Below, piece by piece: positions 3,429 to 53,079 of a DNA stretch of 53,079 nt (position 1 is the first letter of the stretch; every line of letters begins with the position of its first letter). The DNA is from Comamonadaceae bacterium (GTDB lineage: Bacteria; Pseudomonadota; Gammaproteobacteria; Burkholderiales; Burkholderiaceae_C), in the NCBI GenBank assembly GCA_043757205.1, contig JAYVPU010000226.1, positions 1 to 53,079 of the forward strand, in the 5' to 3' direction. The notes below the pieces were generated by a model. That model did not search any database, had not been told where the DNA came from, and was given only the letters and a program-made list of their open reading frames with translations. Both the position numbers and the translations under genes were made by a program.

Positions 3429-3464
3429 GCGAGACGGCTTCTGCGCAAGCGCACAGCGTTCTCC

Positions 3465-3498: not shown

Positions 3499-3511
3499 AG
3501 GGTGAGGCGAA

Positions 3512-3733: not shown

Positions 3734-3748
3734 GAATCGGATTATCGC

Positions 3749-4483: not shown

Positions 4484-4574
4484 CCGTGATCACAAGCGTG
4501 ACCCCGTCACGCAGCCCACTCAGGATCACCCCCTGGGCTTGACCGTGCACAGCTTGCCCGCGCCAGAGCAGTCC

Positions 4575-5189
4575 ATGGCCGACGACGCTGCGCGTGTCGT
4601 CCAAGGGCGCTGGCGCTTGGTGTTGCTTATGCTGGTGTGTGCCGCGCCCGTCATCGCCTCTTACTTCACCTACTACGTCGTGCGCCCCGATGCACGCCGC
4701 AATTTTGGGGACCTCATCCAACCGCAGCGCCCTGTGCCTGAACTGGCCGCCACGGCGCTAGACGGCCAAGCCCTGGCCTTGAGCACGCTCAAAGGTCAGT
4801 GGTTACTGGTCAGTGTGGGCAGCGGCGCTTGTGGCCCTGCCTGCGAGCAGCAGCTCTACTTGCAGCGCCAATTGCGTGAGAGCCTGGGCAAAGAAAAAGA
4901 GCGCGTTGACCGCGTCTGGTTGGTCACCGATGCGCAAGCCCTACCCACCACCCTGCAAGAGGGTTTAAAAGGTGCGACCGTGCTGCGCGTTGCGGCAGCC
5001 CAGTTGGCGCAGTGGCTAGAGCCTGCCCCGGGCCATACATTGGCCGAGCATCTGTACGTGGTCGATCCCATGGGCAACTGGATGATGCGCTTCCCCGCCC
5101 AGCTTGATCTCGCCTCAGCCGCCAAAGCCAAGCGCGATCTGGAGCGTCTCCTGCGTGCCTCAGCCTCTTGGGATCCGGCGGGGCGCTGA
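4575..5189 (+). CDS. membrane-anchored SCO-like thioredoxin-fold protein (CxxxC), cox-cluster associated
   Basis: ORF is open from 4440. The ATG at 4575 (MADDAARVV) avoids overlap with SURF1. It has the TM helix LVLLMLVCAAPVIASYF and GQWLLVSVGSGACGPACEQQLY, which resembles the SCO GxWxLxxFGYTxCPDVCP block. The start is uncertain. Confidence 0.55.
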   Translation: MADDAARVVQGRWRLVLLMLVCAAPVIASYFTYYVVRPDARRNFGDLIQPQRPVPELAATALDGQALALSTLKGQWLLVSVGSGACGPACEQQLYLQRQLRESLGKEKERVDRVWLVTDAQALPTTLQEGLKGATVLRVAAAQLAQWLEPAPGHTLAEHLYVVDPMGNWMMRFPAQLDLASAAKAKRDLERLLRASASWDPAGR

Positions 5190-36696: not shown

Positions 36697-37494
36697 TTGG
36701 ACATTCTGACTTTAGAAATCCTGGCAGCATCGCTGCTCGGAGCCACTTTGGGGATTTTGTTTTATCGAAGCCGGATAGTTTCGTGGAAGAAAAAAGAAAA
36801 ACAACTTCCCACCCATTGGAGCCTCAGGCTAAGGCCGATTTTTAGCGACGTTGATCATGCGGTGTGGCTCTGGTTGAAACAGGTTTTTCCTGAACACGAG
36901 GTGCTCGTCAAAGTTCCGGTGCTTCGTTTCTTGAGTGGGTCTTCGGGTGATTTGAAAGCAATGATTCAGATCAAGGACATCTACTGCAGTTTTACAGTGT
37001 GCTCACCCAAAGGCAGGGTGCTGGGCTGTATTGACGTCCCCGGTGCCAAGGGGCTCAAAGCAAGTCGACGCGACCTCAAGAAAAAACTCTTTGAGAGCTG
37101 TGGTTTGCCCTATGCCGTTTTTGGGGCTCAAGACCTCCCAACCCACGAAGCCTTGCGTACTTTTTTCTTGAATGAGGACATGCCGTCTCCCGCTATTACC
37201 AGTCAATTTGAGGCAGTACATTCATCTCAGACGTCCGAATTTGACGAGGCTGAAGCCATGCCAGTCATTGAGAGCGTAATAACTGCAAAATCTGATGATG
37301 CTGCCAGCGTCCGTAACAGTTTGCACGTCAAACTCGACGGTAATCGCAAGAGGCGGCTAGCCGCAATGGAGAGTCTGAAAATGAGTGCGGAGGTTGTCGA
37401 AGACAACGCTGAACAAGGTCTTGCGCCGCGCTGGGACGACTCTTTCATCATGGGCGAAGGCAATGACGCATACCCATCAAGGCCTAACGCCTAA
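36697..37494 (+). CDS. membrane-anchored DUF2726-like (nuclease-fold-related) protein
   Basis: TTG start 6 nt after a strong AGGAG. N-terminal TM helix, then HAVWLWLKQVFPEHEVLVKVPVLRFL...CSFTVCSPKGRVLGCIDV, resembling DUF2726. The C-terminal half is acidic and low-complexity. The DNA is visibly AT-richer. Confidence 0.5.
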   Translation: MDILTLEILAASLLGATLGILFYRSRIVSWKKKEKQLPTHWSLRLRPIFSDVDHAVWLWLKQVFPEHEVLVKVPVLRFLSGSSGDLKAMIQIKDIYCSFTVCSPKGRVLGCIDVPGAKGLKASRRDLKKKLFESCGLPYAVFGAQDLPTHEALRTFFLNEDMPSPAITSQFEAVHSSQTSEFDEAEAMPVIESVITAKSDDAASVRNSLHVKLDGNRKRRLAAMESLKMSAEVVEDNAEQGLAPRWDDSFIMGEGNDAYPSRPNA

Positions 37495-38232
37495 CGCCTT
37501 TGAGTTTGAGTTTGAGTTTGAGTTTGATTTCGCATTGAAGTCATCTGAAAAGCGCAAAAAAATGGTTGCTTCGTTGGTGGTTTTTGGCGTTTGGTGTTGA
37601 TAAGTGGCAGAAACAATGCCGGGTGCTAGCGCTATCAACTGCGTGCCCATGGCGATTGCGGCCTCGCTGCTCATAAAACCCGCCAGCAGCAGTTGCCAAG
37701 TCACGACTCCCTTTTTCTCCAGGCTTTGTTCCGCTTTAACGGGGTAGCCACTTTTTCGCAAGAAGAGAACCAATCTTTGCGCGTTAACTTCCTGCTCGCC
37801 CGCCTCCAGGATCAAGGTCCACGGCGCGTTGGCATAAAGCCGAACGGGCCCATCACCCATTGGCCCACCCTCTAGTGGCAGGCTTTTTGCCGAGGGGCTG
37901 CCGACACGAACGCGACCCTGCATCGCGTTACCTGTGCTGCCACTGCCCTGGTCTTGCCATTCCCACATGCTGTTCTCATGCAACTCAACCTGCTCCTGGT
38001 CCAGTCGCACCAGCACTTTGCCTGCGCGCCCCGTGGTGATCAAAGTCTGACCGGTAATCGGCGTGCCCGCTTGGGCGGGCTCATTTCCAAGCCGTGTTTC
38101 AACCCACGCGGGGGGGCTCACCCATTCGATAAAAGGCGCACCCGTTGCGTCGTTCAGCAGGGCGCAGAACACAAGGAAGACATAGAACTTTGGTATGCTT
38201 CGCGTTTTTAGAAAATGCAAGGAATTGATCAT
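37477..38232 (-). CDS. exported FecR-like / SPOR-like two-domain protein
   Basis: Signal peptide KTRSIPKFYVFLVFCALLNDATGA. FecR-like stretch AQAGTPITGQTLITTGRAGKVLVRLDQEQVELHENS. C-terminal beta-alpha-beta-beta-alpha-beta segment WTLILEAGEQEVNAQRLVLFLRKSGYPVKAE...TWQLLLAGFMSSEAAIAMG is SPOR-like. The tail is (SN)4. Confidence 0.55.
   Translation of the reverse strand: MINSLHFLKTRSIPKFYVFLVFCALLNDATGAPFIEWVSPPAWVETRLGNEPAQAGTPITGQTLITTGRAGKVLVRLDQEQVELHENSMWEWQDQGSGSTGNAMQGRVRVGSPSAKSLPLEGGPMGDGPVRLYANAPWTLILEAGEQEVNAQRLVLFLRKSGYPVKAEQSLEKKGVVTWQLLLAGFMSSEAAIAMGTQLIALAPGIVSATYQHQTPKTTNEATIFLRFSDDFNAKSNSNSNSNSKALGVRP
37482..37530. repeat. two adjacent microsatellites: (GCCTAAC)x2.6 and (TTTGAG)x4 plus one degenerate unit
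   Basis: gcctaac gcctaac gcct (37482-37499), then tttgag x4 and tttgat (37499-37528). They lie in the overlapping 3' ends of the two convergent ORFs. Confidence 0.9.
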
Positions 38233-38947
38233 GAGTAGCGTGATGTTTTACGAAAAACCAGTGGCTGTTAACCGCGATCAACATCGCAGCAGCAAAATTG
38301 GTTCCGTCCCCAACTTTTCATTTTCCGGAAAAACCAATTCAGTGCCTCTGTCAGGCGTTGAGTTTATCGAAGCCTGCAAAGAGTATCCGATTGTGTTTGC
38401 CAAAGTGGGCGACCGCAAAGTCCCCGTGGCCCTGTTAGGCCTGCGCGACAACGACAACCTCTATGTCAAAGCTGACGGCACATGGGACGCCCGCTACATC
38501 CCCGCCTTTGTGCGCCGCTATCCCTTTGTGCTGGCTGAAAAAGGCGCTGACGAATTCGTCGTCTGCATTGATGAAGCCTCATCCGCCTTCAACGCGCCCG
38601 AGGGCCAAGCCCTGTTTGACAAAGACGGTGTCAACACCCCTTTCCTCGACGGTGCGTTGAACTTCCTCAACTCCTACCAAGCGCAAACCCAGCGCACGAA
38701 TGCCTTTTGCAAGCAACTGGACGACATGGGCCTGTTCACCGAGATGTCGGCCAAGTCGGAGCTGGTGGACGGTCGTACCTTCCTCTTCAGCGGCCTGTAT
38801 GTGGTTGACGAAGCCAAGCTGATGGCGCTCACCGCCAAGGCCGCCGTGAACCTGCTCAAATCAGGCGAAGCCGGTTGGATCTATGCCCACCTCATTTCCC
38901 TGTCCAACATGAGTCGCTTGGTCGATCGCATCTCGACCAAGGCCTGA
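38231..38947 (+). CDS. SapC family protein
   Basis: MFYEKPVAVNRDQHRSSKI...YPIVFAK...VPVALLGL...YIPAFVRRYPFVL...FLNSYQ fits SapC (PF07277) along its length. The start may be 38243. The ORF is open from 38195. Confidence 0.8.
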   Translation: MSSVMFYEKPVAVNRDQHRSSKIGSVPNFSFSGKTNSVPLSGVEFIEACKEYPIVFAKVGDRKVPVALLGLRDNDNLYVKADGTWDARYIPAFVRRYPFVLAEKGADEFVVCIDEASSAFNAPEGQALFDKDGVNTPFLDGALNFLNSYQAQTQRTNAFCKQLDDMGLFTEMSAKSELVDGRTFLFSGLYVVDEAKLMALTAKAAVNLLKSGEAGWIYAHLISLSNMSRLVDRISTKA

Positions 38948-38948
38948 G

Positions 38949-40058
38949 CTACAGATCGCCGATCATCACCGCAGTGAGCATCGGCTGATCCAGCATTGCC
39001 CCTGGCTGTTTAACAGTCGCGCCCGCCGCCTCGGCGTCGGCGCGACTCGCAAAAACTCCATAAAAAACCCGCAAACGTCCGCCTGGGGCGGGCAATACAA
39101 ACAGCGGCCGGTCTGGGGGCAGGCTGCTCAGCACATCCAGCGAGGCGGTAACCGGCAGGCTACCCACCTCCAGCGTGAACCCCGTGGCCATTTGCTCGGA
39201 CAAACGTGCCCGGCTGATGTCGATGGCCGCTTGCGTAGCTTCTGGAACCACCACAGGGGGTGGGGGCGGCGTTGGCGTCGGCACCACAGGGGTGGGCATC
39301 ACCTTCTCTGGTGTGGCGGTACTCAAGCGCGTGGGCTCCAAGGTTCGAACAAACGACCAGGCCAGCAATGCCAAACCCACGGCACCCAGCATTAACCAGA
39401 GGACAGCCGTTTTGTCCGCGCCTTTGCGGGGCAACACGGCAGGCGGTGTGGCTGGTAAAGCTAGGCTCGGCAGTTCAGGCCTGGGCTCGTCCACAGGCAG
39501 CGGTATCGTGTTTTCCCAGACGACGTCTTCCTCAGCCGGCAAAACTGGGTCGAGCGGTTTTGCCGCCGCCAGTGGCTTGGCGGCAATCACGTCCACCCGC
39601 ATGGGGGCGGGCGACGAGCGGGCCACCTGCTGAGACTGAATCACCTGATTCAACATCGAATCAAAATCAACATGGTCCAGCAAAACCGGCTGAAACCCGG
39701 CTGAAACCGCCATATTCGCCAAGTCCTTGCGGGCAAACGGGAACAAAATGGCCGGCGCCACCTGGCGCACAAAGCGATGGGCCTCGGCCATGTCGGGCAG
39801 CTCCAGCTCAAAAATCCCGGCCACCGACACCTCAATCAAAAACACATTGCGCCCTGCCAGCCGCGCATGCAGCGAAATGCGCAACACACACTCCATGGCC
39901 CCTGGCCAAGCGGGCTCGGCCAAAGTCTGCATGTCCAGCCCCACCTCGGGCGAAATCGCCTGCTTGGGCAACTCCGCCATGTGAGGCACCTCAACCGAGG
40001 CACCTTTCAGGTAAATGCGAACAATCTTGTACGGCGTGCTGACGGGAACTGAAGTCAT
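38949..40058 (-). CDS. SecB-like chaperone domain fused to Pro-rich linker, one TM helix and a periplasmic SPOR-like domain
   Basis: Residues about 9-150 align by eye with E. coli SecB: YKIVRIYLKGASVE / PEVGLDMQT / ECVLRISLHARL / FLIEVSVAGIFEL / APAILFPFARKDLANMAVSAGFQPVLLDHVDFDSML. The TM helix is AVLWLMLGAVGLALLAWSFV. A PTPVVPTPTPPPPPVVVP spacer follows. The C-terminus is FTLEVGSL...LRVFYGVFASRADAEAAGATV. The ATG at 40058 lies 10 nt after the upstream gene stop. Confidence 0.75.
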   Translation of the reverse strand: MTSVPVSTPYKIVRIYLKGASVEVPHMAELPKQAISPEVGLDMQTLAEPAWPGAMECVLRISLHARLAGRNVFLIEVSVAGIFELELPDMAEAHRFVRQVAPAILFPFARKDLANMAVSAGFQPVLLDHVDFDSMLNQVIQSQQVARSSPAPMRVDVIAAKPLAAAKPLDPVLPAEEDVVWENTIPLPVDEPRPELPSLALPATPPAVLPRKGADKTAVLWLMLGAVGLALLAWSFVRTLEPTRLSTATPEKVMPTPVVPTPTPPPPPVVVPEATQAAIDISRARLSEQMATGFTLEVGSLPVTASLDVLSSLPPDRPLFVLPAPGGRLRVFYGVFASRADAEAAGATVKQPGAMLDQPMLTAVMIGDL

Positions 40059-40068
40059 AAAGTCGGGC

Positions 40069-41178
40069 TCAGCGAGGATCGTAAATGGCCGCAAAGTTTT
40101 GCTGACCCGCGTCAAAGCGCAAATTGCTAAAAGACAAGGAACTGGGTGAAAACTGGTAGTTGTTGCGGCTCACCCGTATCCGCCCAGACCAGCCGGACGG
40201 CATGGAGCAGACATAGCGACCCTGGTTGTCAGTGGGTGCACACTGCGCGCCATCGGCACTCAGCTGCACATTCGCCAGCGCCTCGCCCGTGGCCGCAGAC
40301 CCTGCCCCACCAAACCCGGACGACAAACGCACCACCCCGCTCACGCTCACAGGTGCCGGGGTAAAAGCAGGGGAGAGGACAGGAGGAGGCGCAGGCGCGA
40401 CGGCGGGCACCGCTACCGCGACCGGCACTGCGGGTGCCGCCGCCACGGCCCGCTCAGGCACCGCCAGAGGGGTGGGCGGCGTCTGCACGGGTAGTGTCGG
40501 TGTCGGTGCCGATGCCGATGCCGATGCCGGTGCAGATGCCACAGCCACCATCACCTTGTACCCGGTCACAGGGTTGGGCTGTGCATCACCCGCACCCCAT
40601 CGCAACACGGTGTTCTTGCTCTTCTTTTTGGTTTTGTCGGGGGTGCCCGTCAATGCCAGCAAGAAATCATCCCCCCCTGATAGCCCGACCACGCGCGTGA
40701 GCCCGGACACCCGCATCGGCGTGCTTTGAATCCTGAAAATATCAACCGGGCTGCGACCCAGCTGCCCCTTGTTATTGGCACCCCAGACCCAAACCGTGCC
40801 ATCGGCCAGCAACGCAGCACTGTGCTGCGTGCCCGCACTCACCGCCAAAGCCTGCCCGGCCAGGCCCGTGACCAGCGACGCCCCCGCCACGGGCCGAGAG
40901 TGGCCCAAGCCCAATTGCCCGCTGCTGTTGTCACCCCAGGCCCACACCTTGCCTGCGGCGTCCACCCCGAGTGAATGCCGCGCACCCTTCGCAAGCGCAG
41001 CCCATTTGCGGTCTGCCAGGGGCGCGGGCGCGCTACTCCCCCAAACGGGGGATAGCACAACACATAAAGCGGCCAACATTGCAAGCCAGCGCATGCAGCC
41101 AGACGCCAAAGCTGCCCTAACAAATTGATACATCCGTGATCCAAAAAAGACGGGTCGGGCCCGCTCTGCCCAGCCCAT
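40069..41178 (-). CDS. secreted RCC1-repeat protein with Ala/Pro/Thr linker and carboxypeptidase-regulatory-like C-terminal domain
   Basis: RCC1-type repeats HSLGVDAAGKVWAWGDNSSGQLGLG and HSAALLADGTVWVWGANNKGQLG. (AS)n/PT-rich linker. The C-terminus VSGVVRL...ANVQLSADGAQCAPTDNQGRYVCSMPSGWSGRIRVS resembles a CarboxypepD_reg beta-sandwich. Three in-frame ATGs are possible starts (41178, 41133, 41094). Confidence 0.68.
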   Translation of the reverse strand: MGWAERARPVFFGSRMYQFVRAALASGCMRWLAMLAALCVVLSPVWGSSAPAPLADRKWAALAKGARHSLGVDAAGKVWAWGDNSSGQLGLGHSRPVAGASLVTGLAGQALAVSAGTQHSAALLADGTVWVWGANNKGQLGRSPVDIFRIQSTPMRVSGLTRVVGLSGGDDFLLALTGTPDKTKKKSKNTVLRWGAGDAQPNPVTGYKVMVAVASAPASASASAPTPTLPVQTPPTPLAVPERAVAAAPAVPVAVAVPAVAPAPPPVLSPAFTPAPVSVSGVVRLSSGFGGAGSAATGEALANVQLSADGAQCAPTDNQGRYVCSMPSGWSGRIRVSRNNYQFSPSSLSFSNLRFDAGQQNFAAIYDPR

Positions 41179-41483: not shown

Positions 41484-43262
41484 ATGTTTTTAAAAGAAAG
41501 TCATCCCATGGAATCAACGTTGAATAAAAGCACCCTGTCCCAAGCCATCGGCTTGCTGATTGCGCTGGGTGCGTTCGGTTTAAACCCAGCCCTGGCCCAA
41601 GTTCAACCCGATGCAGGCTCTCTAATGACCACGCCTGCTGCGCCCATGACGGCTCCCCCCAAAGCCCCTGTTTTTGAAATCCAGCAAGACGTGCGTCCCG
41701 TGCTGGTGGTGCCGGGTGGCGTCAAGGTCAAAGTCAATGGCTTCAAAGTCACGGGCAACACCGCTTACCCCTCCGCTGAGCTTGAAGGCCTGCTGAGCAT
41801 GCAAGTTGGCAAAGAGCTTGACCTGGCCGGGCTGGACGAAGCCGCCAGCCTCATCAGCCAGTACTACCGCAACCAGGGCTACTTTGTGGCCCGCGCCTAC
41901 CTGCCCGCCCAAGAAGTGGCCAGCGGCAACATCGAAATCTCCGTCATTGAAGGCCGCCTGGGTGCCGTCAAGCTGGAGCGCAAAGGCGAAACTCGCCTGA
42001 TGGACGAAGTCGCCCAAGGCATCGTGGCTGACGCCTCCCCTATTGGCTCCCCCATTAAAGACCGCAGCATTGAGCGCGGCCTCATGCTCCTCAACGACCT
42101 GCCCGGCGTTGAAGTCAAATCCACGCTGGTGCCCGGTGCCAGCGTCGGTACCTCTGACCTCGTGGTTGAAACCACCCAAGGCCCGCTGATCAATGGCGCG
42201 GTTGACGCCGACAACTTTGGCAACAGATTCACCGGTGCTACCCGTGTGGGCGGCACCGTCAACATCAACGACCCCTCCGGCCGCGGCGACCAGGTCATCC
42301 TGCGCGGCATGGCCTCTGGCCTGGGCGGCGCCAACGGCGACGGTGGCATGCGCTACTTCCGCGGTGCCTACAGCCTGCCCGTGGGCACGGCCGGCACCAA
42401 GCTGGGCGTGGCTTACACCGGCATGAACTACACACTGGGCCAAGACTTTGCAGCGCTCAACGCCAACGGCACCTCCAGCATTGGCAGCCTCTTTGCGGTT
42501 CACCCCTTCGTGCGCTCACGCAACGCCAACCTGTATGGCACGGCCAGCTTTGACAACAAGCGCATCCAAGACAATCAAAACGGCATCAACACCGCCGACA
42601 AAGGCATCAACGTCCTGGCCTTGGGCCTATCCGGTGACTCGCGCGACGGCTACGGCGGCGGCGGCATGACCAGCGGCAGCCTGACCGTCTCTGGCGGCAA
42701 CATCACACTGGACAACGCCAACTTCAACGCCAACGACGCCATCACTGCCCAAACCAGCGGCAGCTACGGCAAATTGACCTACGGCCTCACCCGCTTGCAG
42801 CGTGTGGACGACGACTGGTCTATGTACGCTGCCTTCAGTGGCCAAGCCGCCAACAAAAACCTCGACTCCTCTGAGAAATTCGTCCTGGGCGGCATGGGCG
42901 TGCGCGCCTACCCCCAGGGTGAAGCCGCTGGCGACGAAGGCCAGTTGCTCAACCTTGAAGCCCGCTACAACGTGCCCGGCCTCAAGCTCCAGCTCACCGG
43001 CTTCTTTGACATGGGCCGTGTCAACCTGCACAAAAACACCTGGACCGGCTGGCAGCCTGTCGGCCTGCCCGGCTTCCCCAACAGCTACAACCTGGCCGGT
43101 TTTGGCTTGGGTGCCAACTTCTACGAAGAATCCAACTACACCATCCGCGCCAGCCTGGCCTGGAAGATCGGTAGCAACCCTGGTGCATCGGCCACCGGGC
43201 TTGACTCTGACAACAACAACACCAGCCCACGTCTGTGGCTGCAAGCCACCAAACAGTTCTGA
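41484..43262 (+). CDS. ShlB/FhaC/HecB family two-partner secretion outer-membrane transporter (TpsB)
   Basis: Signal peptide ...LIALGAFGLNPALA. POTRA region VNGFKVTGNTAYPSAELEGLL...ISQYYRNQGYFVARAYLPAQEV..GNIEISVIEGRLG. C-terminal beta-barrel ending in ...WLQATKQF. The start is 41484 (GGAGG upstream) or 41508. Confidence 0.92.
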   Translation: MFLKESHPMESTLNKSTLSQAIGLLIALGAFGLNPALAQVQPDAGSLMTTPAAPMTAPPKAPVFEIQQDVRPVLVVPGGVKVKVNGFKVTGNTAYPSAELEGLLSMQVGKELDLAGLDEAASLISQYYRNQGYFVARAYLPAQEVASGNIEISVIEGRLGAVKLERKGETRLMDEVAQGIVADASPIGSPIKDRSIERGLMLLNDLPGVEVKSTLVPGASVGTSDLVVETTQGPLINGAVDADNFGNRFTGATRVGGTVNINDPSGRGDQVILRGMASGLGGANGDGGMRYFRGAYSLPVGTAGTKLGVAYTGMNYTLGQDFAALNANGTSSIGSLFAVHPFVRSRNANLYGTASFDNKRIQDNQNGINTADKGINVLALGLSGDSRDGYGGGGMTSGSLTVSGGNITLDNANFNANDAITAQTSGSYGKLTYGLTRLQRVDDDWSMYAAFSGQAANKNLDSSEKFVLGGMGVRAYPQGEAAGDEGQLLNLEARYNVPGLKLQLTGFFDMGRVNLHKNTWTGWQPVGLPGFPNSYNLAGFGLGANFYEESNYTIRASLAWKIGSNPGASATGLDSDNNNTSPRLWLQATKQF

Positions 43263-43285: not shown

Positions 43286-46200
43286 ATGACCAACACCACA
43301 GCATCCAACGCATCTAACAGTCGCAACAACGCATCCGGGAGCAACGCAGTGAATCAAGCAAAAACGGGTAACAAAACCTTCAATAAGATCAAAGCCACTG
43401 TTTATAAAGTCAAAGTCTCAGGCGGCAAAACCCTCACCTACATCTTCCGTCCGCGCCTGCGCATCAGCGCCCTGCTGCGGGCACTGCTCAGCACCTTCAT
43501 CGCCACCATCTCTGGCCACGCCCTGGCGCTAGACGTCAACGCACTGCCCACCGGCGGCGCGGTAGGCGCAGGCAGTGGCAACATCACCACCACCGGCAAC
43601 GCCATGCAGGTGACCCAGGCCACCCAGAACATGGTGGTCAACTGGAACACCTTCAACATCGGTGCCAACTCAGCAGTCAATTTTGCGCAGCCCAACAGCA
43701 GCGCCGTGGCCCTGAACCGCGTCACCAGCACAGACCCCTCCCTCATCTTCGGTAGCCTCACCTCCAACGGCCAGGTCTTCTTAACCAACCCCTCTGGCGT
43801 GCTCTTCGGTGCCACGGCCCGGGTAGACGTGGGCGGCCTGGTGGCCACCACCCTCAGCATCTCTGACGGCGACTTCCTCGCCGGTGCCAGCACCGGCAAA
43901 TACACCTTCTCTGGCAACGGCACGGCTTCCGTCGTCAACCTCGGCACCATCAACGCGGCCCAAGGCGGCTACATCGCCCTGCTGGCCCCTGAAGTCCGCA
44001 ACGAAGGCATCATCACCGCCCGCATGGGCACCGTGGCCCTGGCCGGTGGCAACAGCGTCACGCTCGACATGGCTGGCGACGGCCTCATTAAAGTGGCTGT
44101 GAATACCGGTGCCGTTAACGCCCTGGCCAGCAACAAAGGCCTCATCCAGGCCGACGGCGGCATGGTGTACCTGGGTGCCAAAGGCGCGGGTGATCTGGCT
44201 GCAACGGTGGTGAACAACGAAGGCATCATTGAAGCCAAAAGCCTGGTTGAGCGCGGCGGCAAGATCATGCTGGAGGCGCTGGGCGCTGGCGCAGTGGCCA
44301 CCAACAGCGGCACGCTTGATACGTCTGGTGTGGGCTCGGCCAGTGGTGGTGATATCCGCGTATTGGCGATGGACGGCACGGCTACACTGGATGCCAACTC
44401 TGTCATTTTGGCAAAGGGTGGTGACCAGGGTGGTAATGGTGGTGTCGTCGAACTCTCCGGTAAACACTTCAACTACGCCGGTGTGGTGAACACATTGGCA
44501 CCGCAAGGGCAAACCGGTCAACTGATTATTGACCCGGCCAACGTGTTGATTACTGATGGTGCTTCTGCCGGGGGTTATACGGCTACGCCTGGCAATGTGG
44601 GCACCGATACGATTACCGCCGGGACGATTCAATTCATCACGGGCACTACCGGGTTGAATCTTCAGGCCACAGATGGGATTGCATCAGTCGCTACCAGTAT
44701 CACGGGCGGGGGGCAGAACCTTGGCTTGACATTGATCGCTGGTGGCACACCGACCTCCATTAACGTGGGTACCACGCCCATCGCTTTGGGTACAGGTGCA
44801 TTGACGGTCACGGCCATTGGTACGGCTAACGTGATCGTGGGTGGTGTTACAGGTGCAGGTTTGACGGTGACATCGGGCACTGGTCAGATTACCTTGAACA
44901 ATGCAGTGAATGTGGGTACGGGTGCAATTTCCGTCACTGGTGGTGGCATTGTCGGCACATCAGGTGCAGCAACATTGACCGGTGGAAATGTTTCCCTGAC
45001 CTCGGGTGGCACACAAAATCTGGCAATCGGTGCTGCCGTCACGGCTTCAGGTGCTACAACCTTGACCGGTGCACATGACCTAACCATTGGCGGCGCCTTG
45101 TCTTCCGGTGGTACGGTGAACCTGACTTCATCCAATGTGATTGCAGTCAATAGCAACGTTACCGCAACGAATCAGACGATTAACTTCAACGGCATGAACA
45201 CGCTCACGACCGCAGGGTCAGTGAATGCGGGTGCTGGAACGATCAACATCCTGCCTACCGCTGGAACAACAGTGGGTCTGGGTGGTGGTACAGGTGCCGT
45301 GCAAATTTCGGATGCTAATCTCACGGCCATGACCGCCACAACGGTCAATATCGGCACAGGTGGTGCGACCACCAACAATACAACGGTTGGGACTTTGAGC
45401 CCAGCAGCCACGATTGGTACCTTGAATATTAAGGCAGGTAATGCGGGTACGATCACGCAAGACGGTGGCACGGGTATTGATATTTCTGCAGTTGCAACCA
45501 ACGTCAACTTCATCGCAGGTGCGGGCGTAGGCACCGGCGCTACCCCAATACTGTTTAATACGGCTGTTGGCAAAGGCACCCTGGGTGCAAACACTTCGGG
45601 TGGCACGGGTGACATTTACCTCCATTCCGCAGCCAACGTCGATACGGGTACGTTGGCTATTACCACGGCCGCAGGTGCTCAAAACATTCGTGTTTCTACT
45701 GCAGGCACCTTGACGGTTCCCGTGGCTGGCCTGTCTGCCGCAACCGACAACGTCACTTTGCGCGCTGACAATGAAACCATCAGCGGCACAGTCACAGCCA
45801 ACAGTGTCACGCTGGATCAGTTCAACACAGCTACAACCGTTAATGTCGGTGGCGCTGATGGCGTTGGCGTTTTGGGCGTTAACGCAGCCGAACAGGCACT
45901 GCTCGCCGCAGCCACCGTGCGCTTGGGTCGCTCTGATGGCGGTGCGCTGAATGTGTCTGCTAACACCGGTTTGAATGGTGCAACCACTGCGCTGCATCTG
46001 AAATCAGGCTCAACCGTGGGTCAGTCAGCGGCCACCGTCATCAATGTGGCTGGCTTGGCCGTCACGGCTGGTGGCACGGTGACTTTGGATCAAGCCAACA
46101 CCGTCAACAATTTCGCAGCTTCGGCTGCTAGTCAGCGTGTGGACTTCAAGAACACTGGCAGCATCGATGTGGGGCAGACGGTTGACAGCGTGGCAGGCAT

Positions 46201-49200
46201 TACCGCCACCACCGTCAACCTCATCAGCAACACCGGTGTCATTACCCAAGGTGCGGCGGGCATTACCGCCACCAATCTGTCGGCCACCACCAACGCGGCG
46301 GGCAAGTCCATCACACTGGGCTCCAGCAACAACGCTGTCAGCAACTTCGCGGCAGCCACCACTGGCGGAGCCGTCACTTACGTCAATAAAAACGGCTTCA
46401 CCGTGGCCGATCTGACTGCTAGCGGCGGTGCCAATGGCGTCTCCTCGGCTGGTGGCAACGTTAGCCTGACGGCGGGCGGCACGGGCAAAACCCTGACCGT
46501 TTCCGCCAATGTCAGTAGCGGTGCAGGCAACATTACCTATGTTGCCGACGATATGGTGCTGACAGGTACGACGACCAGCACGGGTACGGTCACCCTCAAC
46601 AGCAGCACCGCTTCCCAGGGCATCGTTCTGGGCGCGGGCGGCTCCGGCCTGGGCTTGTCCAGCGCCGAGTTGCAGACCATCACCACCACCGGCCCGTTGG
46701 TCATCGGTAGCACCACCCACACCGGCTCCATCACGGCCGATGCCGTCGTGACCGGGGTCACCAACCCCAGCGGCGCTTGGTCCATGCTGACCAGTGGCGG
46801 CGCAGTGAACTTCAGCACCTATGCCGTAACCACGCCGGGCAACCTGACCATCAACACCAAAGGCTCGGGCGCGGCCACCGGCGGCGCAGTCTCCGGCACC
46901 GGCGCTTTGACCATAGGCGCAGGCGGTGCCAGTGGGCTGACCGTGTCGGCCGATGGCGGCATTGACCTGACCAACGTGGGCAACCTGGCCAATGCGGTTT
47001 CCCTGACCAACAGCGGCAGCAGTAACATCAGCTACAAAAACAACCGCAACATGACCCTGGCCGCCAGCAATACTGCGGCCGGCGGCACCATTACGGTGGT
47101 CAACGCCAGTGGTACGCTGGATACCGCAGGCACCGGAGTAACCACCGGCATTGGTGCAGCAAACATTGATCTGCAAACCGCTGGCCTGTTGACTGTCGCC
47201 TTGGCGGCTCCCGTCACGGCGGGTGGCACCGGCTCAGTCAACCTTAAAGGTGCAGGTATAACTGTCGCCGGCATAGTCACCGGCCCTGGTGGCATCACTG
47301 CCGACAGCGGCGCTGTCGCATTCAGCAACACTGGCACGCTGACCAATGGCGCTGGCGCTTCAGCCATCTCAATCAAATCTGACGATCTGGTATTGACCGG
47401 CGGCACCATCACGGGCGGTACGGGCACTGTCACGCTGGGTCGCAGCACGGCGGGCGGCACGATTGCATTGGGCTCAGCAATTGCAGGCGGACTGGATACT
47501 GCTGAACTGGCAACTGTCACCGCAACCAATCTGGTCATTGGTGGCTCCGGCTTCACCGGCACCATCGACACAGTCGCAGCCGTATCACTCGCTACCTCGA
47601 CCCCTAATGTCAAGCTGCAAGCCGACGGCGCGTCGGGCCGCATCACCAACTCGGGCGGAGCAGCCGCCATTGTCACCACCAATGCAGATAGCCTGACCAT
47701 GTTGGCATCTGCGGGTATCGGTGCAGCGGGTGGAGCGAATGCAATGCAAATCTCCCCCGGCCTAGGCTCGATTGCAGCGACCAACAGCACGATAGGTGAC
47801 CTTAATATCAATGTCACTGGCAACTTTACGGTGGGCGGCGGAAGCATCGCGCAGAACGGTTCTGGAAATCTGGGTTTGTCAGCCACGCAAAATGTGATCA
47901 TTGACGGCAATGTTGACTTGAAAAACAGCGGCACGATCACGTTGAACGCGGGTGGTGCAGGATTCACCATTACCGAAGGCACCACCGGCGGCACCCTGCG
48001 CACTGGCGCGAGCGTGAATGGCCTGACCGGCAGCGTGGCGCTGGGCGGCGGCGTAACCACTGACTCTATCGGTACGCTGCTCAAGCCGATCCTGACCAAA
48101 ACCTCGGGCCTGACGGCCACCTCCGCCAGCGGTGGTTTGTTCGTCAGCAACACCGGTGCCTTGTCAATCGCGGGTGCCACCAACGCCACCGGCGGTAACT
48201 TGAACATCGCTGCCACCGGTGCTTTGAGCGTGGACGCCGCCGTCACCCAAAACTCGGCTGCCAATACGTTGACGCTGAGCGGTGTCGGCCTGACCAATAA
48301 CAACACCATCACCGGCACTCCCGGTGGCTTGACGATAGATGCCGGCACCGGCACCTTAACCAACGCCGCTCTCAATATCATTGCCAACGGCGGCAGCGCA
48401 GGTGCAGTCAACCTGACCGGCGACAGCATGAATCTGGTCGCCACCAGTTCGGTAACAGCAGGCTCTGGCCGCGTGACTGTGGCGCAGAAAACGGCAGGCA
48501 CGGCCATCAACCTGGGTACCGCCACCGGTGCGCTGGACCTCACCACCGCTGAACTCGGCACCATCACCACTACCGGCGTCTTGCAGGTGGGTAATAGCGC
48601 ATCCGGTGCGGTCAACGTTTCGTCCGCCATCGCCCCGGCCGCGACCAAGCTGGACATCGAGTCTGGCAGCACCATCAGTGGCGCAGGCTCCATCACCGTC
48701 ACTAACTTGGCCCTGCGCTCGGTCGGCGCCGTGGACTTGACCACCGCCGCCAGCAGCGTCGCCAATCTGTCTGCCAATGTCAGCGGTGCGGGCAACGCTT
48801 TTGCATTTAAAGATGGCATGGCTTTGTCAGTAGGCACCGTGGATAGCTTGGCCGGCATCACCACCAACACTGGCAACGTCACGCTGACTGCTGCCGGACT
48901 ACTGAGCCAAACCGCTGCAATCAGCGGTGCCACCCTGAGCACCAGTTCCACCACCGGCACCACGCTAAACAGCGCCAACACCGTCACCGGCTTCACCGCC
49001 AGCAACACCGTCAGCGGCAACATTGCGCTGACCAACACGGCAGCACCGCTGACCATTACCTTGGGCGGTATTACCGAACTGGTGGGCGGTACCGTCAACA
49101 TCCAGAACACCGGTGCACTGGTTCTTACTGGCAGCACCAATGCAGGCGTGGCTGGCACGGTGACCTTGGACACCACTGGTGCGGGAACCATCACCGGTGC

Positions 49201-52200
49201 TGGCCTGATTACGGCTGACACCATCAATCTGCAAACCACCGCCAACAGTTCGGGTGCCGTAGGCGCGACCGGCGCTGGCAATTCGGCCAACACGGCCGGC
49301 ACCACCACGCTGAATCTGGGCCAAGGCAGCACCTTGGCCGGCGCCTACATCAACCACGCGGGGGCCTTGGCCCTTGCTGCACCCAGCCTGGCCACCAATG
49401 CGCCTTTGCATGTGGTCTCCAGTGGCGGCCTCACGTTACCGGGTTCGGTCATCAGCACCGGCACCGGTGAGCTGTACCTGGAAAGCGGTACTTCGCTGTC
49501 CACTGCAGCCAACCTCACCACCACCAGTGGTGCACTGACGCTTAAAGCCGCTACCGGCGTGACGGTGGCCAATGCGTTGCAATCGGGTTCTGGCCCCATC
49601 GTCATCACCAGCACTGGTATTGGTACGGTTGCACTGAATGCCGGCGGCACGGTGACATCCACCAGCGGCACGGTAACCCTGTTGGCCAACGGTGCGACCA
49701 GCGACGTGCTGATCAACGCAGCGGTCAGCAGCACCAGCGGTGCGGTCAACGTAACGGCGGGCAGGACGATTACCGAAGGCGGAGCAGGTGCAGGCACCAT
49801 CGGCACGAGCGGCTTGCTGACGACCAATTCGGGTGGCGCAGTCGGTGCATTGGCTGGCGGCACATCCCTTGGCAATGCCAACACGGTGGGCAGCTTCACC
49901 GCCACCAACGCGGTGACGGGCAACGTGAACCTGGTCAACACGGCAGCGCCGCTGACCATTACCGGCATCACCAACACCGCCGCTAACGGCAACGACACGG
50001 TGACGAACACCGGCGCGATCACCACCACGGGTGCGATCACGACGGCAGCCAACGGGCTGATCAACCTGACCGCAAGCGGCACCGAGACCATTGGTGCAGC
50101 AGTCACGGCAGGCGGTTCTGGTTCTGTCTCGCTCAACGCAACGGGCCTGCTGACAGTCAACCAGGCTGTATCAAGCACCACGGGTGCATTGATCCTCACG
50201 GGCGGCACGGGCGTGACGCACGCTGTAGCCGGTACGCTGGCCACGACTGGTGCAGGCACGATTGACGTGACGGCCACCACAGGTGACGTGACCATGGCCA
50301 ACGGGACGACCTACACAACGGCTGGCGGTACGGTGAACGTGACAGCGGGCACTAACATCGCTCTCGGCCAAGTGACCAGCACCGGCGGCATCGTCAACCT
50401 GACGGCTACGGGCGGCAACATCACCGACAACAACGGTGCCACCAACAACGTAACGGCCACGACCTTGAATGCCACGGCAGCCAACAAGATTGGCAACGTC
50501 TTGCCCGGCAGCGTGCTGACCGGCCCGGCCGATGCGCTGGAAACCGCAGTTTCCAACCTCTCCGTCACCACCACGGGCGCTGGCGTGAACGAAATCGCCA
50601 TCACCAACACCCTCGTTGGCACTTTGACCCCCACGGTGACGCTCAACGGCGGTGGCAGCAGCCATGTTTACATCAGTAACGTCGGTAGCCCGGCCAGCAA
50701 CACGGGCAACCTGAATGTGTCTGGCGTGGCCATGAACCAGAACAACAGCTACGGCTTTGTTGCGGGCGGCACCTTGACCCTGCCCAACGCGGCCATCAGC
50801 GTGGGCACGGGTTCGCTGAACCTTCAGGGTGCGACAGACATCGTCAACACCGCCTCTACGTTCTTGTCGGGTAACCGCATCACGGCGGCTAATTTGCTGT
50901 TCAAGTCGGGCGCTTCGGAGTCACTGCTGACCAACGTGACCAATGCCGACGTGGCGATCACGGGTGCAGGTAACACCTTCACCTTGGTACAAGATGCAAA
51001 TGGCGCTACGGGTACGGCCGATGGTGCCAGCAGCATCACGTTCAAAGACTTGGACGCCAACACCTTCTCGCTGCAAACGGCCAGCGGTGCGGTGAGCCTG
51101 ACCAACAAGCACAGCAACAGCAGCATCACGCTGGCTGATAAGGTGAATCTGGCTTCTGCGGGTGCAGGTGCCAATTTGACTTCGATGGTGCTTCAGACGG
51201 GTGTGGGTTCGGGTACCAACCTGGGTGGCGGCTATGCTGCGGTTGCGGGTACCGATAACAGCGGTGGCAATACGATTGCCACAGGCGCAACGGTGACTTT
51301 GGGCAGTGCGACTACCAACTTCGGTACGCTGGATATCCAGGGTCGCTTTACCAACACGGGTACGCTAAACGTCAGCACGGGGACGACGGCTACCTTCTCG
51401 GCTCCGTCGGCAGACATTGTGTTCACCTCGGCCACCACGGCGGCGGGTAACGTGACCTTGTCACCTGGCCTGTCTAACGACGTGGTGATTCAAAACGGTG
51501 CTTCGCTGAATGTGACTTCCACCGGCACGGGCACGGGCACGTTGACGATTCAAAATGCGGATCAATTGATCTTGCAAACCGGTGGTGCACCAGCCTCGAT
51601 CGACGTGGCAGGTTCCATGGTGGTGAAGAATGTGTACGCCGTGGACATGCAGGTAGGTACCAGCATCAAAGTGGGTACCAACGCTGCAACCAGCGGTGCT
51701 GACGTGTTCCTGGCGACTAACGGTGTGGGTTCGTTCACGATGGGGGCCGGTAGCTCCATTACTGCACCGGGTTCGATCCTGATCAAGGCATCTACCGTGG
51801 CCCGCAATGGCACGGCAACCGACAACGTGGCGGGCGCCCCTGCGGTGGCTACAGGTTTGGTGACGGTGAATAACCTGCAAGTGGACAGCGACGGCGATGG
51901 CGGCATCTATGGTCTGCCAGGTGGTGTGGCCACAGCGCTGGTGGGTACTGCTCGCTTGGCGGTTGAGGGCAGTGGCGTGACCATGACAGGTCTGATCACC
52001 TCGGGTAATGCCAGCAGTTCTTTGGTGCCTTATATCGGTGCAACCACGGGCGGCATCACTACTAGTGGAACGCAGAATTTCACCAATTTTGCAGGCGTAG
52101 AGCTGCAAAGCACCACGGGCAGCATCGGTACACTGGCCAACCCGGTCAGCATGGGTGTGGCCAAGGTGGCTGCCACCACAACGGGTGGCGACATCTATAT

Positions 52201-53079
52201 CAAGGAAGCCGGTCTGGCCGGTGGGCTGGAGGTGGCGAGCTTGTCCACCTTTGACGTGGCAGGTGCCGCCAAGGCGATTTCTGGTGTGACGGTGACGACC
52301 GCTGCCAATGGCACCAAAAACATCAACATCCGGGCCAGCAGCCCGCTGGTGGTGAATGCGGCCGTGACGGACAGCAGCGGTGGCAACATCGTGCTGGCGG
52401 CTGAAGGCAATGCCGTGACCGACAACCTCACGCTCAATGCCAACGTGACTGCAACCGGTGGCAACGGCAATATCAGCCTGTACTCGGGCAATGGCACTTC
52501 CATCTCCAACGGTGTGGCGGTGAATGCAGCGGGTTCGGGTGCGGTGCTGGTGTCTGCGGGCACCAATTACAACGGCGGTACGCCTGCCAATGGCTACGAC
52601 GGCGGCACAGTCGGCAATGGCAGCGCGGGTAGCACGATCGGCATGGCCGGCACCTCGACCATCACGTCAGGCACGGGCAGCATCACTTTGCAAGCACCTG
52701 GCGATATCTCGCTCACCAAGCTGACCACCACTGGCGGTGCGGTGATCGTTAACGCGGCCTACACCGGCCCAGGTGCGACACTGACGGCAACGGGTGCAAT
52801 CTCTGATGTGCTGGCAGCTGAAACCGCCAACATCACGGGCGGTGCAGTGACCTTGAATGCCATGAAGGGCATCGGTGTGGCTGACAACATCAACGTAACA
52901 GCCACCAGCATTGCAGCCAGCAATACCACCAGCGGTGGTATCAACCTGGGCATCATAGGTGCGTCGGCACTGAATGCCATTACCGCTGCGGGTCAGACAG
53001 TGACGCTGGACGCCAGCGGCGCGCTGACGGATGGCAACGGTGCGGCAATGAACATCACGGCCACGAGCTTGGAGTTCAA
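43286..53079 (+). CDS. giant TpsA exoprotein (filamentous hemagglutinin N-terminal/TPS domain plus very long beta-helical repeat region), 3' end beyond window
   Basis: ATG at 43286, 23 nt after the tpsB stop. The frame (position mod 3 = 2) has no listed terminated ORF and reads through to nt 53079, more than 3,264 codons. N-terminus: long N/S-rich extension, hydrophobic signal ...LLSTFIATISGHALA, then TPS motifs NWNTFNIG (43640-43663) and NPSG (43787-43798), then GGDIRV...GGVVELSG...LIIDP. The remainder is a G/T/A/N/V-rich repeat region. Confidence 0.93.
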   Translation, partial: MTNTTASNASNSRNNASGSNAVNQAKTGNKTFNKIKATVYKVKVSGGKTLTYIFRPRLRISALLRALLSTFIATISGHALALDVNALPTGGAVGAGSGNITTTGNAMQVTQATQNMVVNWNTFNIGANSAVNFAQPNSSAVALNRVTSTDPSLIFGSLTSNGQVFLTNPSGVLFGATARVDVGGLVATTLSISDGDFLAGASTGKYTFSGNGTASVVNLGTINAAQGGYIALLAPEVRNEGIITARMGTVALAGGNSVTLDMAGDGLIKVAVNTGAVNALASNKGLIQADGGMVYLGAKGAGDLAATVVNNEGIIEAKSLVERGGKIMLEALGAGAVATNSGTLDTSGVGSASGGDIRVLAMDGTATLDANSVILAKGGDQGGNGGVVELSGKHFNYAGVVNTLAPQGQTGQLIIDPANVLITDGASAGGYTATPGNVGTDTITAGTIQFITGTTGLNLQATDGIASVATSITGGGQNLGLTLIAGGTPTSINVGTTPIALGTGALTVTAIGTANVIVGGVTGAGLTVTSGTGQITLNNAVNVGTGAISVTGGGIVGTSGAATLTGGNVSLTSGGTQNLAIGAAVTASGATTLTGAHDLTIGGALSSGGTVNLTSSNVIAVNSNVTATNQTINFNGMNTLTTAGSVNAGAGTINILPTAGTTVGLGGGTGAVQISDANLTAMTATTVNIGTGGATTNNTTVGTLSPAATIGTLNIKAGNAGTITQDGGTGIDISAVATNVNFIAGAGVGTGATPILFNTAVGKGTLGANTSGGTGDIYLHSAANVDTGTLAITTAAGAQNIRVSTAGTLTVPVAGLSAATDNVTLRADNETISGTVTANSVTLDQFNTATTVNVGGADGVGVLGVNAAEQALLAAATVRLGRSDGGALNVSANTGLNGATTALHLKSGSTVGQSAATVINVAGLAVTAGGTVTLDQANTVNNFAASAASQRVDFKNTGSIDVGQTVDSVAGITATTVNLISNTGVITQGAAGITATNLSATTNAAGKSITLGSSNNAVSNFAAATTGGAVTYVNKNGFTVADLTASGGANGVSSAGGNVSLTAGGTGKTLTVSANVSSGAGNITYVADDMVLTGTTTSTGTVTLNSSTASQGIVLGAGGSGLGLSSAELQTITTTGPLVIGSTTHTGSITADAVVTGVTNPSGAWSMLTSGGAVNFSTYAVTTPGNLTINTKGSGAATGGAVSGTGALTIGAGGASGLTVSADGGIDLTNVGNLANAVSLTNSGSSNISYKNNRNMTLAASNTAAGGTITVVNASGTLDTAGTGVTTGIGAANIDLQTAGLLTVALAAPVTAGGTGSVNLKGAGITVAGIVTGPGGITADSGAVAFSNTGTLTNGAGASAISIKSDDLVLTGGTITGGTGTVTLGRSTAGGTIALGSAIAGGLDTAELATVTATNLVIGGSGFTGTIDTVAAVSLATSTPNVKLQADGASGRITNSGGAAAIVTTNADSLTMLASAGIGAAGGANAMQISPGLGSIAATNSTIGDLNINVTGNFTVGGGSIAQNGSGNLGLSATQNVIIDGNVDLKNSGTITLNAGGAGFTITEGTTGGTLRTGASVNGLTGSVALGGGVTTDSIGTLLKPILTKTSGLTATSASGGLFVSNTGALSIAGATNATGGNLNIAATGALSVDAAVTQNSAANTLTLSGVGLTNNNTITGTPGGLTIDAGTGTLTNAALNIIANGGSAGAVNLTGDSMNLVATSSVTAGSGRVTVAQKTAGTAINLGTATGALDLTTAELGTITTTGVLQVGNSASGAVNVSSAIAPAATKLDIESGSTISGAGSITVTNLALRSVGAVDLTTAASSVANLSANVSGAGNAFAFKDGMALSVGTVDSLAGITTNTGNVTLTAAGLLSQTAAISGATLSTSSTTGTTLNSANTVTGFTASNTVSGNIALTNTAAPLTITLGGITELVGGTVNIQNTGALVLTGSTNAGVAGTVTLDTTGAGTITGAGLITADTINLQTTANSSGAVGATGAGNSANTAGTTTLNLGQGSTLAGAYINHAGALALAAPSLATNAPLHVVSSGGLTLPGSVISTGTGELYLESGTSLSTAANLTTTSGALTLKAATGVTVANALQSGSGPIVITSTGIGTVALNAGGTVTSTSGTVTLLANGATSDVLINAAVSSTSGAVNVTAGRTITEGGAGAGTIGTSGLLTTNSGGAVGALAGGTSLGNANTVGSFTATNAVTGNVNLVNTAAPLTITGITNTAANGNDTVTNTGAITTTGAITTAANGLINLTASGTETIGAAVTAGGSGSVSLNATGLLTVNQAVSSTTGALILTGGTGVTHAVAGTLATTGAGTIDVTATTGDVTMANGTTYTTAGGTVNVTAGTNIALGQVTSTGGIVNLTATGGNITDNNGATNNVTATTLNATAANKIGNVLPGSVLTGPADALETAVSNLSVTTTGAGVNEIAITNTLVGTLTPTVTLNGGGSSHVYISNVGSPASNTGNLNVSGVAMNQNNSYGFVAGGTLTLPNAAISVGTGSLNLQGATDIVNTASTFLSGNRITAANLLFKSGASESLLTNVTNADVAITGAGNTFTLVQDANGATGTADGASSITFKDLDANTFSLQTASGAVSLTNKHSNSSITLADKVNLASAGAGANLTSMVLQTGVGSGTNLGGGYAAVAGTDNSGGNTIATGATVTLGSATTNFGTLDIQGRFTNTGTLNVSTGTTATFSAPSADIVFTSATTAAGNVTLSPGLSNDVVIQNGASLNVTSTGTGTGTLTIQNADQLILQTGGAPASIDVAGSMVVKNVYAVDMQVGTSIKVGTNAATSGADVFLATNGVGSFTMGAGSSITAPGSILIKASTVARNGTATDNVAGAPAVATGLVTVNNLQVDSDGDGGIYGLPGGVATALVGTARLAVEGSGVTMTGLITSGNASSSLVPYIGATTGGITTSGTQNFTNFAGVELQSTTGSIGTLANPVSMGVAKVAATTTGGDIYIKEAGLAGGLEVASLSTFDVAGAAKAISGVTVTTAANGTKNINIRASSPLVVNAAVTDSSGGNIVLAAEGNAVTDNLTLNANVTATGGNGNISLYSGNGTSISNGVAVNAAGSGAVLVSAGTNYNGGTPANGYDGGTVGNGSAGSTIGMAGTSTITSGTGSITLQAPGDISLTKLTTTGGAVIVNAAYTGPGATLTATGAISDVLAAETANITGGAVTLNAMKGIGVADNINVTATSIAASNTTSGGINLGIIGASALNAITAAGQTVTLDASGALTDGNGAAMNITATSLEF

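Follow-up and report, generated by a model that had tools for sequence, protein, structure and literature searches.

A SecB paralogue with a predicted membrane anchor and a SPOR-like periplasmic domain, encoded in a conserved two-partner secretion module of Betaproteobacteria

A stretch of 53,079 nucleotides (nt) from a Comamonadaceae bacterium (GenBank assembly GCA_043757205.1, contig JAYVPU010000226.1; the whole stretch is referred to below as the window) carries a gene for an unusually long homolog of the protein-export chaperone SecB. The protein, which we call long SecB, combines a SecB domain with a proline-rich linker, a single predicted transmembrane helix, a second proline-rich segment, and a C-terminal SPOR-like domain. 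Its gene adjoins genes for an RCC1-repeat protein, for the two components (tpsB and tpsA) of a two-partner secretion (TPS) system, and for a SapC-family protein, and most of this arrangement recurs in distant relatives. Judged by its Pfam match and predicted fold, long SecB is a member of the SecB superfamily; judged by score and architecture, it lies outside the housekeeping equivalog. The constant company of tpsB/tpsA and the RCC1 gene suggests a previously undescribed, dedicated helper of giant-exoprotein secretion. Our preferred reading, to which we assign a probability of roughly 0.5, is that long SecB is a membrane-tethered SecB-type holdase dedicated to its module, and that its client would be the giant TpsA and possibly the precursor of the RCC1-repeat protein.

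An earlier interpretation of the window, made from the letters of the DNA alone (hereafter, the sequence-only reading), had matched residues 1–150 block by block to Escherichia coli SecB, and this assignment stands. The Pfam model PF02556 aligns to residues 10–142 over model positions 8–140 of 141 with an E-value of 4e-27 and 95.3 bits, where 26 would suffice, and the alignment to E. coli SecB is free of gaps within the domain at 29 per cent identity, a resemblance well above what chance would give. A sequence search of the PDB retrieved the SecB proteins of Haemophilus influenzae and E. coli at E-values of about 2e-14. In a full-length AlphaFold2 (AF2) model, which was built from an alignment of 56 family members, residues 10–148 form the four-stranded sheet and long helix of the SecB fold with predicted local distance difference test (pLDDT) values above 90. 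Foldseek aligned the modeled domain to E. coli SecB (1QYN) with an E-value of 3e-9 and a target template-modeling (TM) score of 0.76, whereas the match to Rv1957, the chaperone of a toxin–antitoxin–chaperone (TAC) system, was poorer (E = 4e-6).

SecB keeps precursors unfolded and passes them to SecA via an acidic surface that includes D20, E24, L75, and E77 (PMC4257090). Across the 56 aligned long forms, E24 and E77 never vary, and the position of L75 is occupied by L, M, or V. Among the positions of the tetramer interface, V78 is invariant, C76 is replaced by I, V, or L, and Q80 by V or E; by analogy with SecB, the domain is probably tetrameric.

A housekeeping SecB is a soluble, single-domain protein of about 150–170 amino acids (aa), whereas long SecB has 369 aa, a transmembrane helix, and a second folded domain. 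It is matched by all seven NCBIfam models of SecB equivalogs, but never with a passing score (TIGR00809, for one, gives 90.1 bits where 102.8 are required), which we take as the mark of a paralogue that has diverged. An initial search for homologs yielded 74 protein clusters, each with a PF02556 match, and nearly all full-length ones were 330–460 aa long and had the same layout. With the SecB domain alone as the query, a HMMER search added distant long forms (P0075–P0107) that share 26–48 per cent identity and again combine SecB, a transmembrane segment, and a SPOR-like domain; ranked beneath them were ordinary SecBs, mostly of about 140–200 aa. In total, the long forms, of about 330–460 aa, make up more than 80 protein clusters, and PF02556 scores above its cut-off in every member, including the distant ones. 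Neighbor joining was applied to SecB domains from 30 long and 167 short forms; in 36 of 50 bootstrap replicates the long ones came out as a single clade, provided that one sequence of 141 aa, probably a fragment, is allowed within it. The SecB domain of the window is at most 36 per cent identical to any canonical representative, whereas canonical SecBs, in the sample compared, average 44 per cent identity among themselves. A motif scan of 185,579 species-representative genomes identified five carriers, all of them metagenome-assembled genomes (MAGs) assigned to Rhodoferax or to an uncultured betaproteobacterium. Members from Polaromonas (MBC7608512.1) and Gallionella (MDO9011755.1) MAGs are labeled simply 'protein-export chaperone SecB', a label that conceals the distinct architecture.

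Two members of the collection are laid out differently: P0069 (267 aa) joins a DUF3137 match (PF11335) to the SecB domain, and P0074 (256 aa) has about 100 additional residues ahead of it. These proteins may be fragments, mis-called genes, or further architectures. When metagenomes were scanned with an alignment of the distant members, 78 of the 80 loci held a SecB open reading frame (ORF) of fewer than 175 aa with a GFQPVLL motif, and L020 and L058 were the useful ones. The canonical SecBs of loci L021–L099, which are about 155–170 aa long and whose closest named relatives are from Methylophilaceae and Methylophilales, carry the sequence AGFQPVLLNP, which resembles AGFQPVLLDH of the long family. 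The shared AGFQPVLL motif hints that the long form was derived from a betaproteobacterial SecB.

The ATG at position 40,058 agrees as a start codon with the N-termini of all homologs and was picked by gene callers on four independent contigs; a TTG at position 40,115 would give a longer protein but is an unlikely start. Beyond the SecB fold, the AF2 model is disordered over residues 153–214, helical over 216–239, disordered again over 242–257, and confident over 273–369. Conservation follows the same pattern, with scores of 0.82 for the SecB domain and 0.61 for the C-terminal domain and low values in the two linkers. The sequence-only reading had described a Pro-rich linker, one transmembrane helix, and a PT-rich spacer, and each was recovered: proline makes up 23 per cent of residues 149–213 and 34 per cent of residues 240–271, and residues 214–240 are the sole hydrophobic segment of the protein. 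Nearly all sampled members of the family have a segment of transmembrane grade at the corresponding site, and its N-terminal flank has a net positive charge. A search for an N-terminal signal peptide, by hydropathy and in the family members sampled, found none. Because there is one transmembrane segment with a positive N-terminal flank and no such signal peptide, the SecB domain is predicted to be cytoplasmic and the C-terminal domain periplasmic, and the best reading of the sequence is that long SecB is a bitopic inner-membrane protein with a predicted N-in topology. Directly after the SecB domain, a motif of the form PAPMR(V/L)DVIAAKP is kept in the close subfamily only, and pLDDT falls below 50 from residue 153 in the monomer model. 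We considered docking of this motif into a groove of the SecB domain; in the monomer model the motif stays disordered.

The C-terminal domain had been likened to a SPOR fold. When the last approximately 98 residues were modeled alone, AF2 returned an N-terminal helix followed by a beta-alpha-beta-beta-alpha-beta arrangement (pLDDT of 88.8). With a profile of 26 family C-termini, the best match in the PDB was the SPOR domain of DamX (2LFV; E = 0.006), with the CwlC SPOR domain lower (E = 0.37), and hhalign aligned the domain to DamX with an E-value of 1e-4. Foldseek also placed 2LFV first (probability of 0.89; TM score of 0.44), and the remaining matches included many folds of the RNA-recognition motif or ribonucleoprotein (RRM/RNP) type, the superfamily to which SPOR belongs. 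Against PF05036 (SPOR), the window protein scored 13.5 bits as a whole and 16.1 bits as an isolated domain, below the cut-off of 21. However, PF05036 was matched at E ≤ 1 in 19 of the 26 members, and the distant members P0081 (22.3 bits) and P0101 (23.0 bits), whose C-terminal domains are tied to that of the window by jackhmmer (E of about 1e-22), exceed the cut-off. Sequence comparison and modeling thus support a divergent, SPOR-derived fold, which fits a periplasmic location; to call the module SPOR-like was overstated to the extent that its own Pfam score is sub-threshold.

Genomic context was recovered for 17 distinct long SecBs, down to about 30 per cent identity in the SecB domain. In all 17, the gene immediately preceding long secB encodes an RCC1-repeat protein, with 0–25 nt between the two in most members, and the N-termini of the RCC1 partners usually resemble signal peptides. 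Among the members with the divergent arrangement, the contigs of 11 continue past the RCC1 gene on its upstream side, and all 11 contain the tpsB/tpsA pair, even L100, whose SecB domain is about 34 per cent identical to that of the window. These data agree with the sequence-only reading, which had connected the fusion with its TPS neighbors and had noted, in the window itself, that the RCC1-repeat gene stops 10 nt upstream of the long secB start and that tpsB and a tpsA of more than 3,260 codons are divergent from the pair. Fusions that occur irrespective of TPS neighbors, part of a refuting condition set by that reading, did not turn up among these loci. The two genes have the features of a TPS system: TpsB combines POTRA and ShlB domains, and TpsA, of at least 3,264 aa, has an N-terminal TPS domain (E = 9e-38; 131 bits). 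In two further distant members (L101 and L103), the genes are rearranged onto one strand, where a giant protein with DUF5649 repeats, of which the C-terminal end is present, is followed by SapC, one small ORF (L103) or two (L101), RCC1, and long SecB. The giant protein and SapC are immediate neighbors in L101, whereas in L103 a mobile-element insertion lies between them; in L103, the beta-sandwich of the RCC1 protein is encoded as a separate ORF. A SapC gene belongs to the module in 13 of the 17 members and is absent from two; the remaining two contigs are too short for assessment. The outer flanks vary by locus (CNNM/DUF2726, ManC/FecR, a prenyltransferase, a CoA ligase, an epimerase, or ribosomal proteins). 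Because the genes persist across deep divergence, in different orders, between differing flanks, and through mobile insertions without being dispersed, we interpret the synteny as that of a functional module that goes beyond an inherited neighborhood.

In L006, an ISAZ013-type transposase (3657–4724) is inserted between tpsB and the RCC1 gene, and in L103 a block with HipA, an integrase, and ParE (1760–5066) lies between the end of the giant protein and SapC; neither insertion has disrupted the rest of the module genes. The RCC1 and long SecB pair is joined by a Sel1-repeat protein in one distant subgroup and, in L101 and L103, by a conserved protein (DRLLFR..EFR..LTRAMSI) of about 170 aa. These additions, noted at L101 8930–9898, L105 3–656, and L103 10173–10385, are possible further components of the module.

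Table 1. Coordinates of the long secB gene, the segments of its product, and the neighboring genes in the window.
Feature	Coordinates	Strand	Evidence
Long secB gene, 369 aa (SecB, linker, transmembrane helix, spacer, SPOR-like)	38949..40058	-	ORF, homolog N-termini, gene calls on other contigs, full-length AF2 model
SecB domain, residues 9-148, cytoplasmic (predicted)	39615..40034	-	Pfam, PDB sequence search, Foldseek, pLDDT >90
Post-SecB motif S-P-A-P-M-R-V-D-V-I-A-A-K-P, residues 149-163	39570..39614	-	Mean conservation 0.72 versus 0.34 in the following linker
Cytoplasmic linker, variable and Pro/Ala-rich, residues 164-213, containing a short conserved motif, W-x-[DN]-T-x-P	39420..39569	-	Alignments, composition; disordered in model
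Single transmembrane helix, residues 216-239	39342..39413	-	Kyte-Doolittle maximum 2.22; predicted helix 216-239
Pro/Thr-rich periplasmic spacer, residues 240-271	39246..39341	-	34% Pro; 242-257 disordered in model; length varies in family
C-terminal SPOR-like (DamX-type) domain, residues 272-369, periplasmic (predicted)	38952..39245	-	AF2, PDB profile search, Foldseek, Pfam in relatives
RCC1-repeat gene	40069..41178	-	Pfam RCC1, RCC1_2, WD40_RLD; signal peptide, RCC1 blades, Pro/Ala linker, C-terminal beta-sandwich-like domain
tpsB (Omp85-type two-partner secretion transporter)	41484..43262	+	ShlB 72 bits, POTRA_2 66 bits; divergent from RCC1-secB pair
tpsA, giant exoprotein of at least 3,264 aa, open at window end	43286..53079	+	Reading frame; TPS domain residues 87-330
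TpsA N-terminal motif Y-K-V-K-V-S-G-G-K-T-L-T-Y-I-F-R-P-R, residues 40-57	43403..43456	+	12 TpsA N-termini
SapC-family gene, convergent	38195..38947	+	Pfam PF07277, E 1e-71
Exported 251-aa protein, weak SPOR-like match	37477..38232	-	Pfam SPOR E 0.005, below cut-off; divergent from SapC

In the window, a Pfam scan of the full 3,264 aa of TpsA returned nothing, and the TPS match emerged only from a separate scan of the N-terminal 500 aa; past the TPS domain, no Pfam family was matched, haemagglutinin repeats included. All 12 TpsA N-termini recovered (those of the window and of L003, L006–L009, L011–L015, L058, and the distant L100) contain the motif [YF]-x-K-[VI]-K-[VL]-x-G-G-K-[TS]-L-T-Y-I-[FL]-R-P-R, which follows a variable Ser/Thr/Asn-rich leader and stands directly ahead of the hydrophobic core of the signal peptide. 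This is the position of the extended signal peptide region (ESPR) of other type V proteins; its sequence differs, and the Pfam ESPR model did not match the TpsA N-terminus. We regard the motif as a candidate recognition element for long SecB.

The SapC-family gene is convergent with long secB, and their stop codons are 1 nt apart. SapC is the most conserved gene of the module, with 65–93 per cent identity where long SecB shows 42–71 per cent. Because it has no signal peptide, the SapC-family protein is probably cytoplasmic. The maximal ORFs of SapC and of the exported 251-aa protein overlap by 38 nt. Homologs of the latter lie beside SapC in L012–L015, L016–L019, and L058 and are missing from other loci, which makes it a variable module member; an hhalign comparison with the C-terminal domain of long SecB detected no kinship (probability of 0.6 per cent). 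PDB sequence searches with the SapC-family and 251-aa proteins gave no informative match, and literature searches for SapC returned only papers on saposin C and SAPCD2, or none. A scan of the divergent intergenic region for sigma-70 promoters gave no match, and terminator-like matches were not informatively above the shuffled expectation.

The proposal that long SecB is a dedicated holdase draws on the synteny. From the observed domains, topology signals, clade, and gene neighborhood we infer a client, a hand-over to SecA, and a periplasmic ligand, which could fit together as follows. The SecB domain, probably as a tetramer, would capture at the membrane the unfolded precursor of Sec-exported cargo of the module. 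The giant TpsA (more than 3,200 aa) is the main candidate for this cargo and may be recognized via its YKVKVxGGKTLTYIFRPR extension. The precursor would be passed to SecA via the retained acidic SecA-contact residues, and the periplasmic domain would fix the protein in place by binding either the cell wall or a periplasmic partner, for example, the co-transcribed RCC1 protein. A precedent for the cytoplasmic part of this scheme is the post-translational SecA/SecB route taken by FhaB and several autotransporters with extended signal peptides (PMC8151025). We can also imagine, although we think it unlikely, that long SecB and the RCC1 protein form a trans-envelope accessory complex, in which the holdase would take pre-TpsA by its N-terminal extension and feed it to SecA/SecYEG, while the Pro-rich arm, the SPOR-derived domain, and RCC1 would align the translocon with TpsB.

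Several observations weigh against a holdase dedicated to TpsA and anchored in this way. D20, one of the four SecA-contact residues, is G or S across the 56 members, and the acidic C-terminal tail of canonical SecB has a linker in its place. One highly conserved side chain of SPOR domains touches denuded glycan (RlpA Q270, equivalent to FtsN Q251 and DamX Q351; PMC6895207). At this position, the window protein has E (FTLEVG) and the consensus of the close family has D, so that the glycan-contact Gln is absent; by inspection, the distant members have K, E, or A. The sequence-only reading had placed an export chaperone on the cytoplasmic face and tethered it to the cell wall on the other side: the topology signals uphold the first part of this claim, whereas the wall tether is doubtful because of these replacements. 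The invariable neighbor of long secB is the RCC1 gene and not tpsA, and the client may therefore be the RCC1 protein. For L101 and L103, TPS identity of the giant neighbor is deduced from DUF5649 repeats. Members of the clade all come from MAGs or metagenomes of betaproteobacterial origin (Rhodoferax, Polaromonas, and Gallionella), and since all carriers are Betaproteobacteria, shared descent could explain part of the synteny. Finally, a search for the canonical secB of carrier genomes, in which a canonical SecB from a metagenome locus was the query, retrieved only SecBs of the Methylophilales type and none from carrier MAGs, and the window contains the long secB and no second copy.

These points bear unequally on the alternatives. 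The one we take most seriously, while still considering it fairly unlikely, is that long SecB acts with or for the RCC1 protein and not for TpsA, either by keeping the precursor of a fast-folding beta-propeller competent for export or by docking the mature RCC1 protein through its periplasmic domain; in the docking form, the two would make up a periplasmic complex anchored in the inner membrane, with a role other than TpsA export. The adjacency of the two genes in all 17 members, with short gaps in most that suggest translational coupling, agrees with this, as do the signal peptides of the RCC1 partners and the presence of Pro-rich spacers in both proteins. However, a dedicated chaperone for a periplasmic protein of 370–630 aa would be unusual, the difficult substrate is more obviously a cargo of more than 3,000 aa, and the conserved N-terminal extension of TpsA would be left unexplained. 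An RCC1-directed role and a holdase for TpsA are mutually compatible. It is decidedly improbable, in our view, that long SecB is instead a transmembrane regulator, in which the SPOR-like domain would sense an envelope cue or partner and the SecB domain would hold or free a client, thereby gating TpsA export or controlling a cytoplasmic protein such as SapC. Such a role would suit the layout, which is that of a bitopic sensor whose ligand-binding fold lies outside the cytoplasm and whose effector domain lies inside, the short conserved linear motifs within the cytoplasmic linker, and a most conserved module member, SapC, that is probably cytoplasmic; SecB-like chaperones do control non-secretory clients, as those of TAC systems act on the antitoxin (PMC4257090). 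Yet no transcription factor, sigma factor, or toxin–antitoxin pair is conserved in the module, a single transmembrane helix between disordered Pro-rich linkers would be a poor transmitter of signals, and the conserved SecA-contact residues point to export.

That long SecB is merely a housekeeping SecB with a C-terminal extension, in a TPS neighborhood that is inherited and functionally meaningless, would accord with the plain name it bears in the source records and with the canonical copy that turned up neither in the window nor among carrier MAGs. We nevertheless judge this very unlikely, as the protein falls below every NCBIfam equivalog cut-off, its identity to canonical SecBs stays under the average among them, the long-form motif occurs in merely 5 of the 185,579 genomes, the long forms are a separate clade, and the module is kept, with shuffled order and differing flanks, in members that are about 30 per cent identical. 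A chaperone of a TAC or anti-phage system is suggested by a weak PADLOC match to the SecB-like defense chaperone PD-T4-9_C (33.5 bits) and by the structural match to Rv1957, but the match to canonical SecB is far stronger in both sequence and structure, and TAC chaperones are soluble. We rejected this candidate, to which we attach almost no probability: a toxin or antitoxin gene adjoins long secB in no locus, and the sole toxin–antitoxin genes found are those within the mobile insertion of L103.

SecB is the textbook example of a soluble chaperone. What is new for it here is the architecture and the conserved genomic association. The sequence-only reading had called a membrane-anchored SecB fusion undescribed, and our literature search likewise found no fused or membrane-anchored SecB; in a review of SecB, the words 'fused' and 'transmembrane' do not occur (PMC4257090). 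Compared with canonical SecB of E. coli and H. influenzae (PF02556, TIGR00809), long SecB retains the same fold over the full domain, together with E24, E77, L75, and V78. In contrast, it has 369 aa instead of 155–170, a transmembrane anchor, and a predicted periplasmic domain; its acidic tail is replaced, and D20 is G or S. Canonical SecB is encoded at a housekeeping locus, whereas the long form is encoded in a TPS/RCC1/SapC module, forms a separate clade, and scores below the equivalog thresholds. Extra copies of SecB that serve specific clients, as proposed or shown, are represented by solitary paralogues (Francisella SecB1 and SecB2) and TAC chaperones (Mycobacterium tuberculosis Rv1957) (PMC4257090). 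Those proteins are soluble and have a single domain, unlike long SecB with its membrane anchor and periplasmic domain, and TAC chaperones adjoin a toxin–antitoxin pair, whereas long SecB has no such partner. In its layout, long SecB most resembles the bitopic SPOR proteins DamX, FtsN, and DedD, in which a cytoplasmic N-terminus likewise leads through one transmembrane helix and a Pro-rich spacer in the periplasm to a SPOR-type domain at the C-terminus. It differs from them in that its cytoplasmic part is a SecB domain, the glycan-contact Gln is replaced by E, D, K, or A, and no division genes are linked to it.

Accounts of type Vb (two-partner) secretion invoke only TpsA, TpsB, and general Sec factors. 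Accessory factors of such systems include the HMW1C glycosyltransferase and, for FHA, the periplasmic proteins DegP and Par27. Long SecB would resemble these in being an additional protein that is encoded with TpsA or acts on it during its exit. A review of folding in type V secretion names general cytoplasmic chaperones (SecB and DnaK) and no dedicated cytoplasmic or inner-membrane one (PMC8151025). If the proposed role is correct, two-partner secretion would gain its first dedicated accessory factor in the cytoplasm or inner membrane, and long SecB would be the first SecB to span a membrane. It would also offer a handle on two questions, namely how an exoprotein of more than 3,000 aa is kept competent for export and whether Sec export is spatially coupled to translocation across the outer membrane. 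If, in addition, the trans-envelope complex considered above exists, two steps that are supposedly uncoupled would become a spatially coupled conduit.

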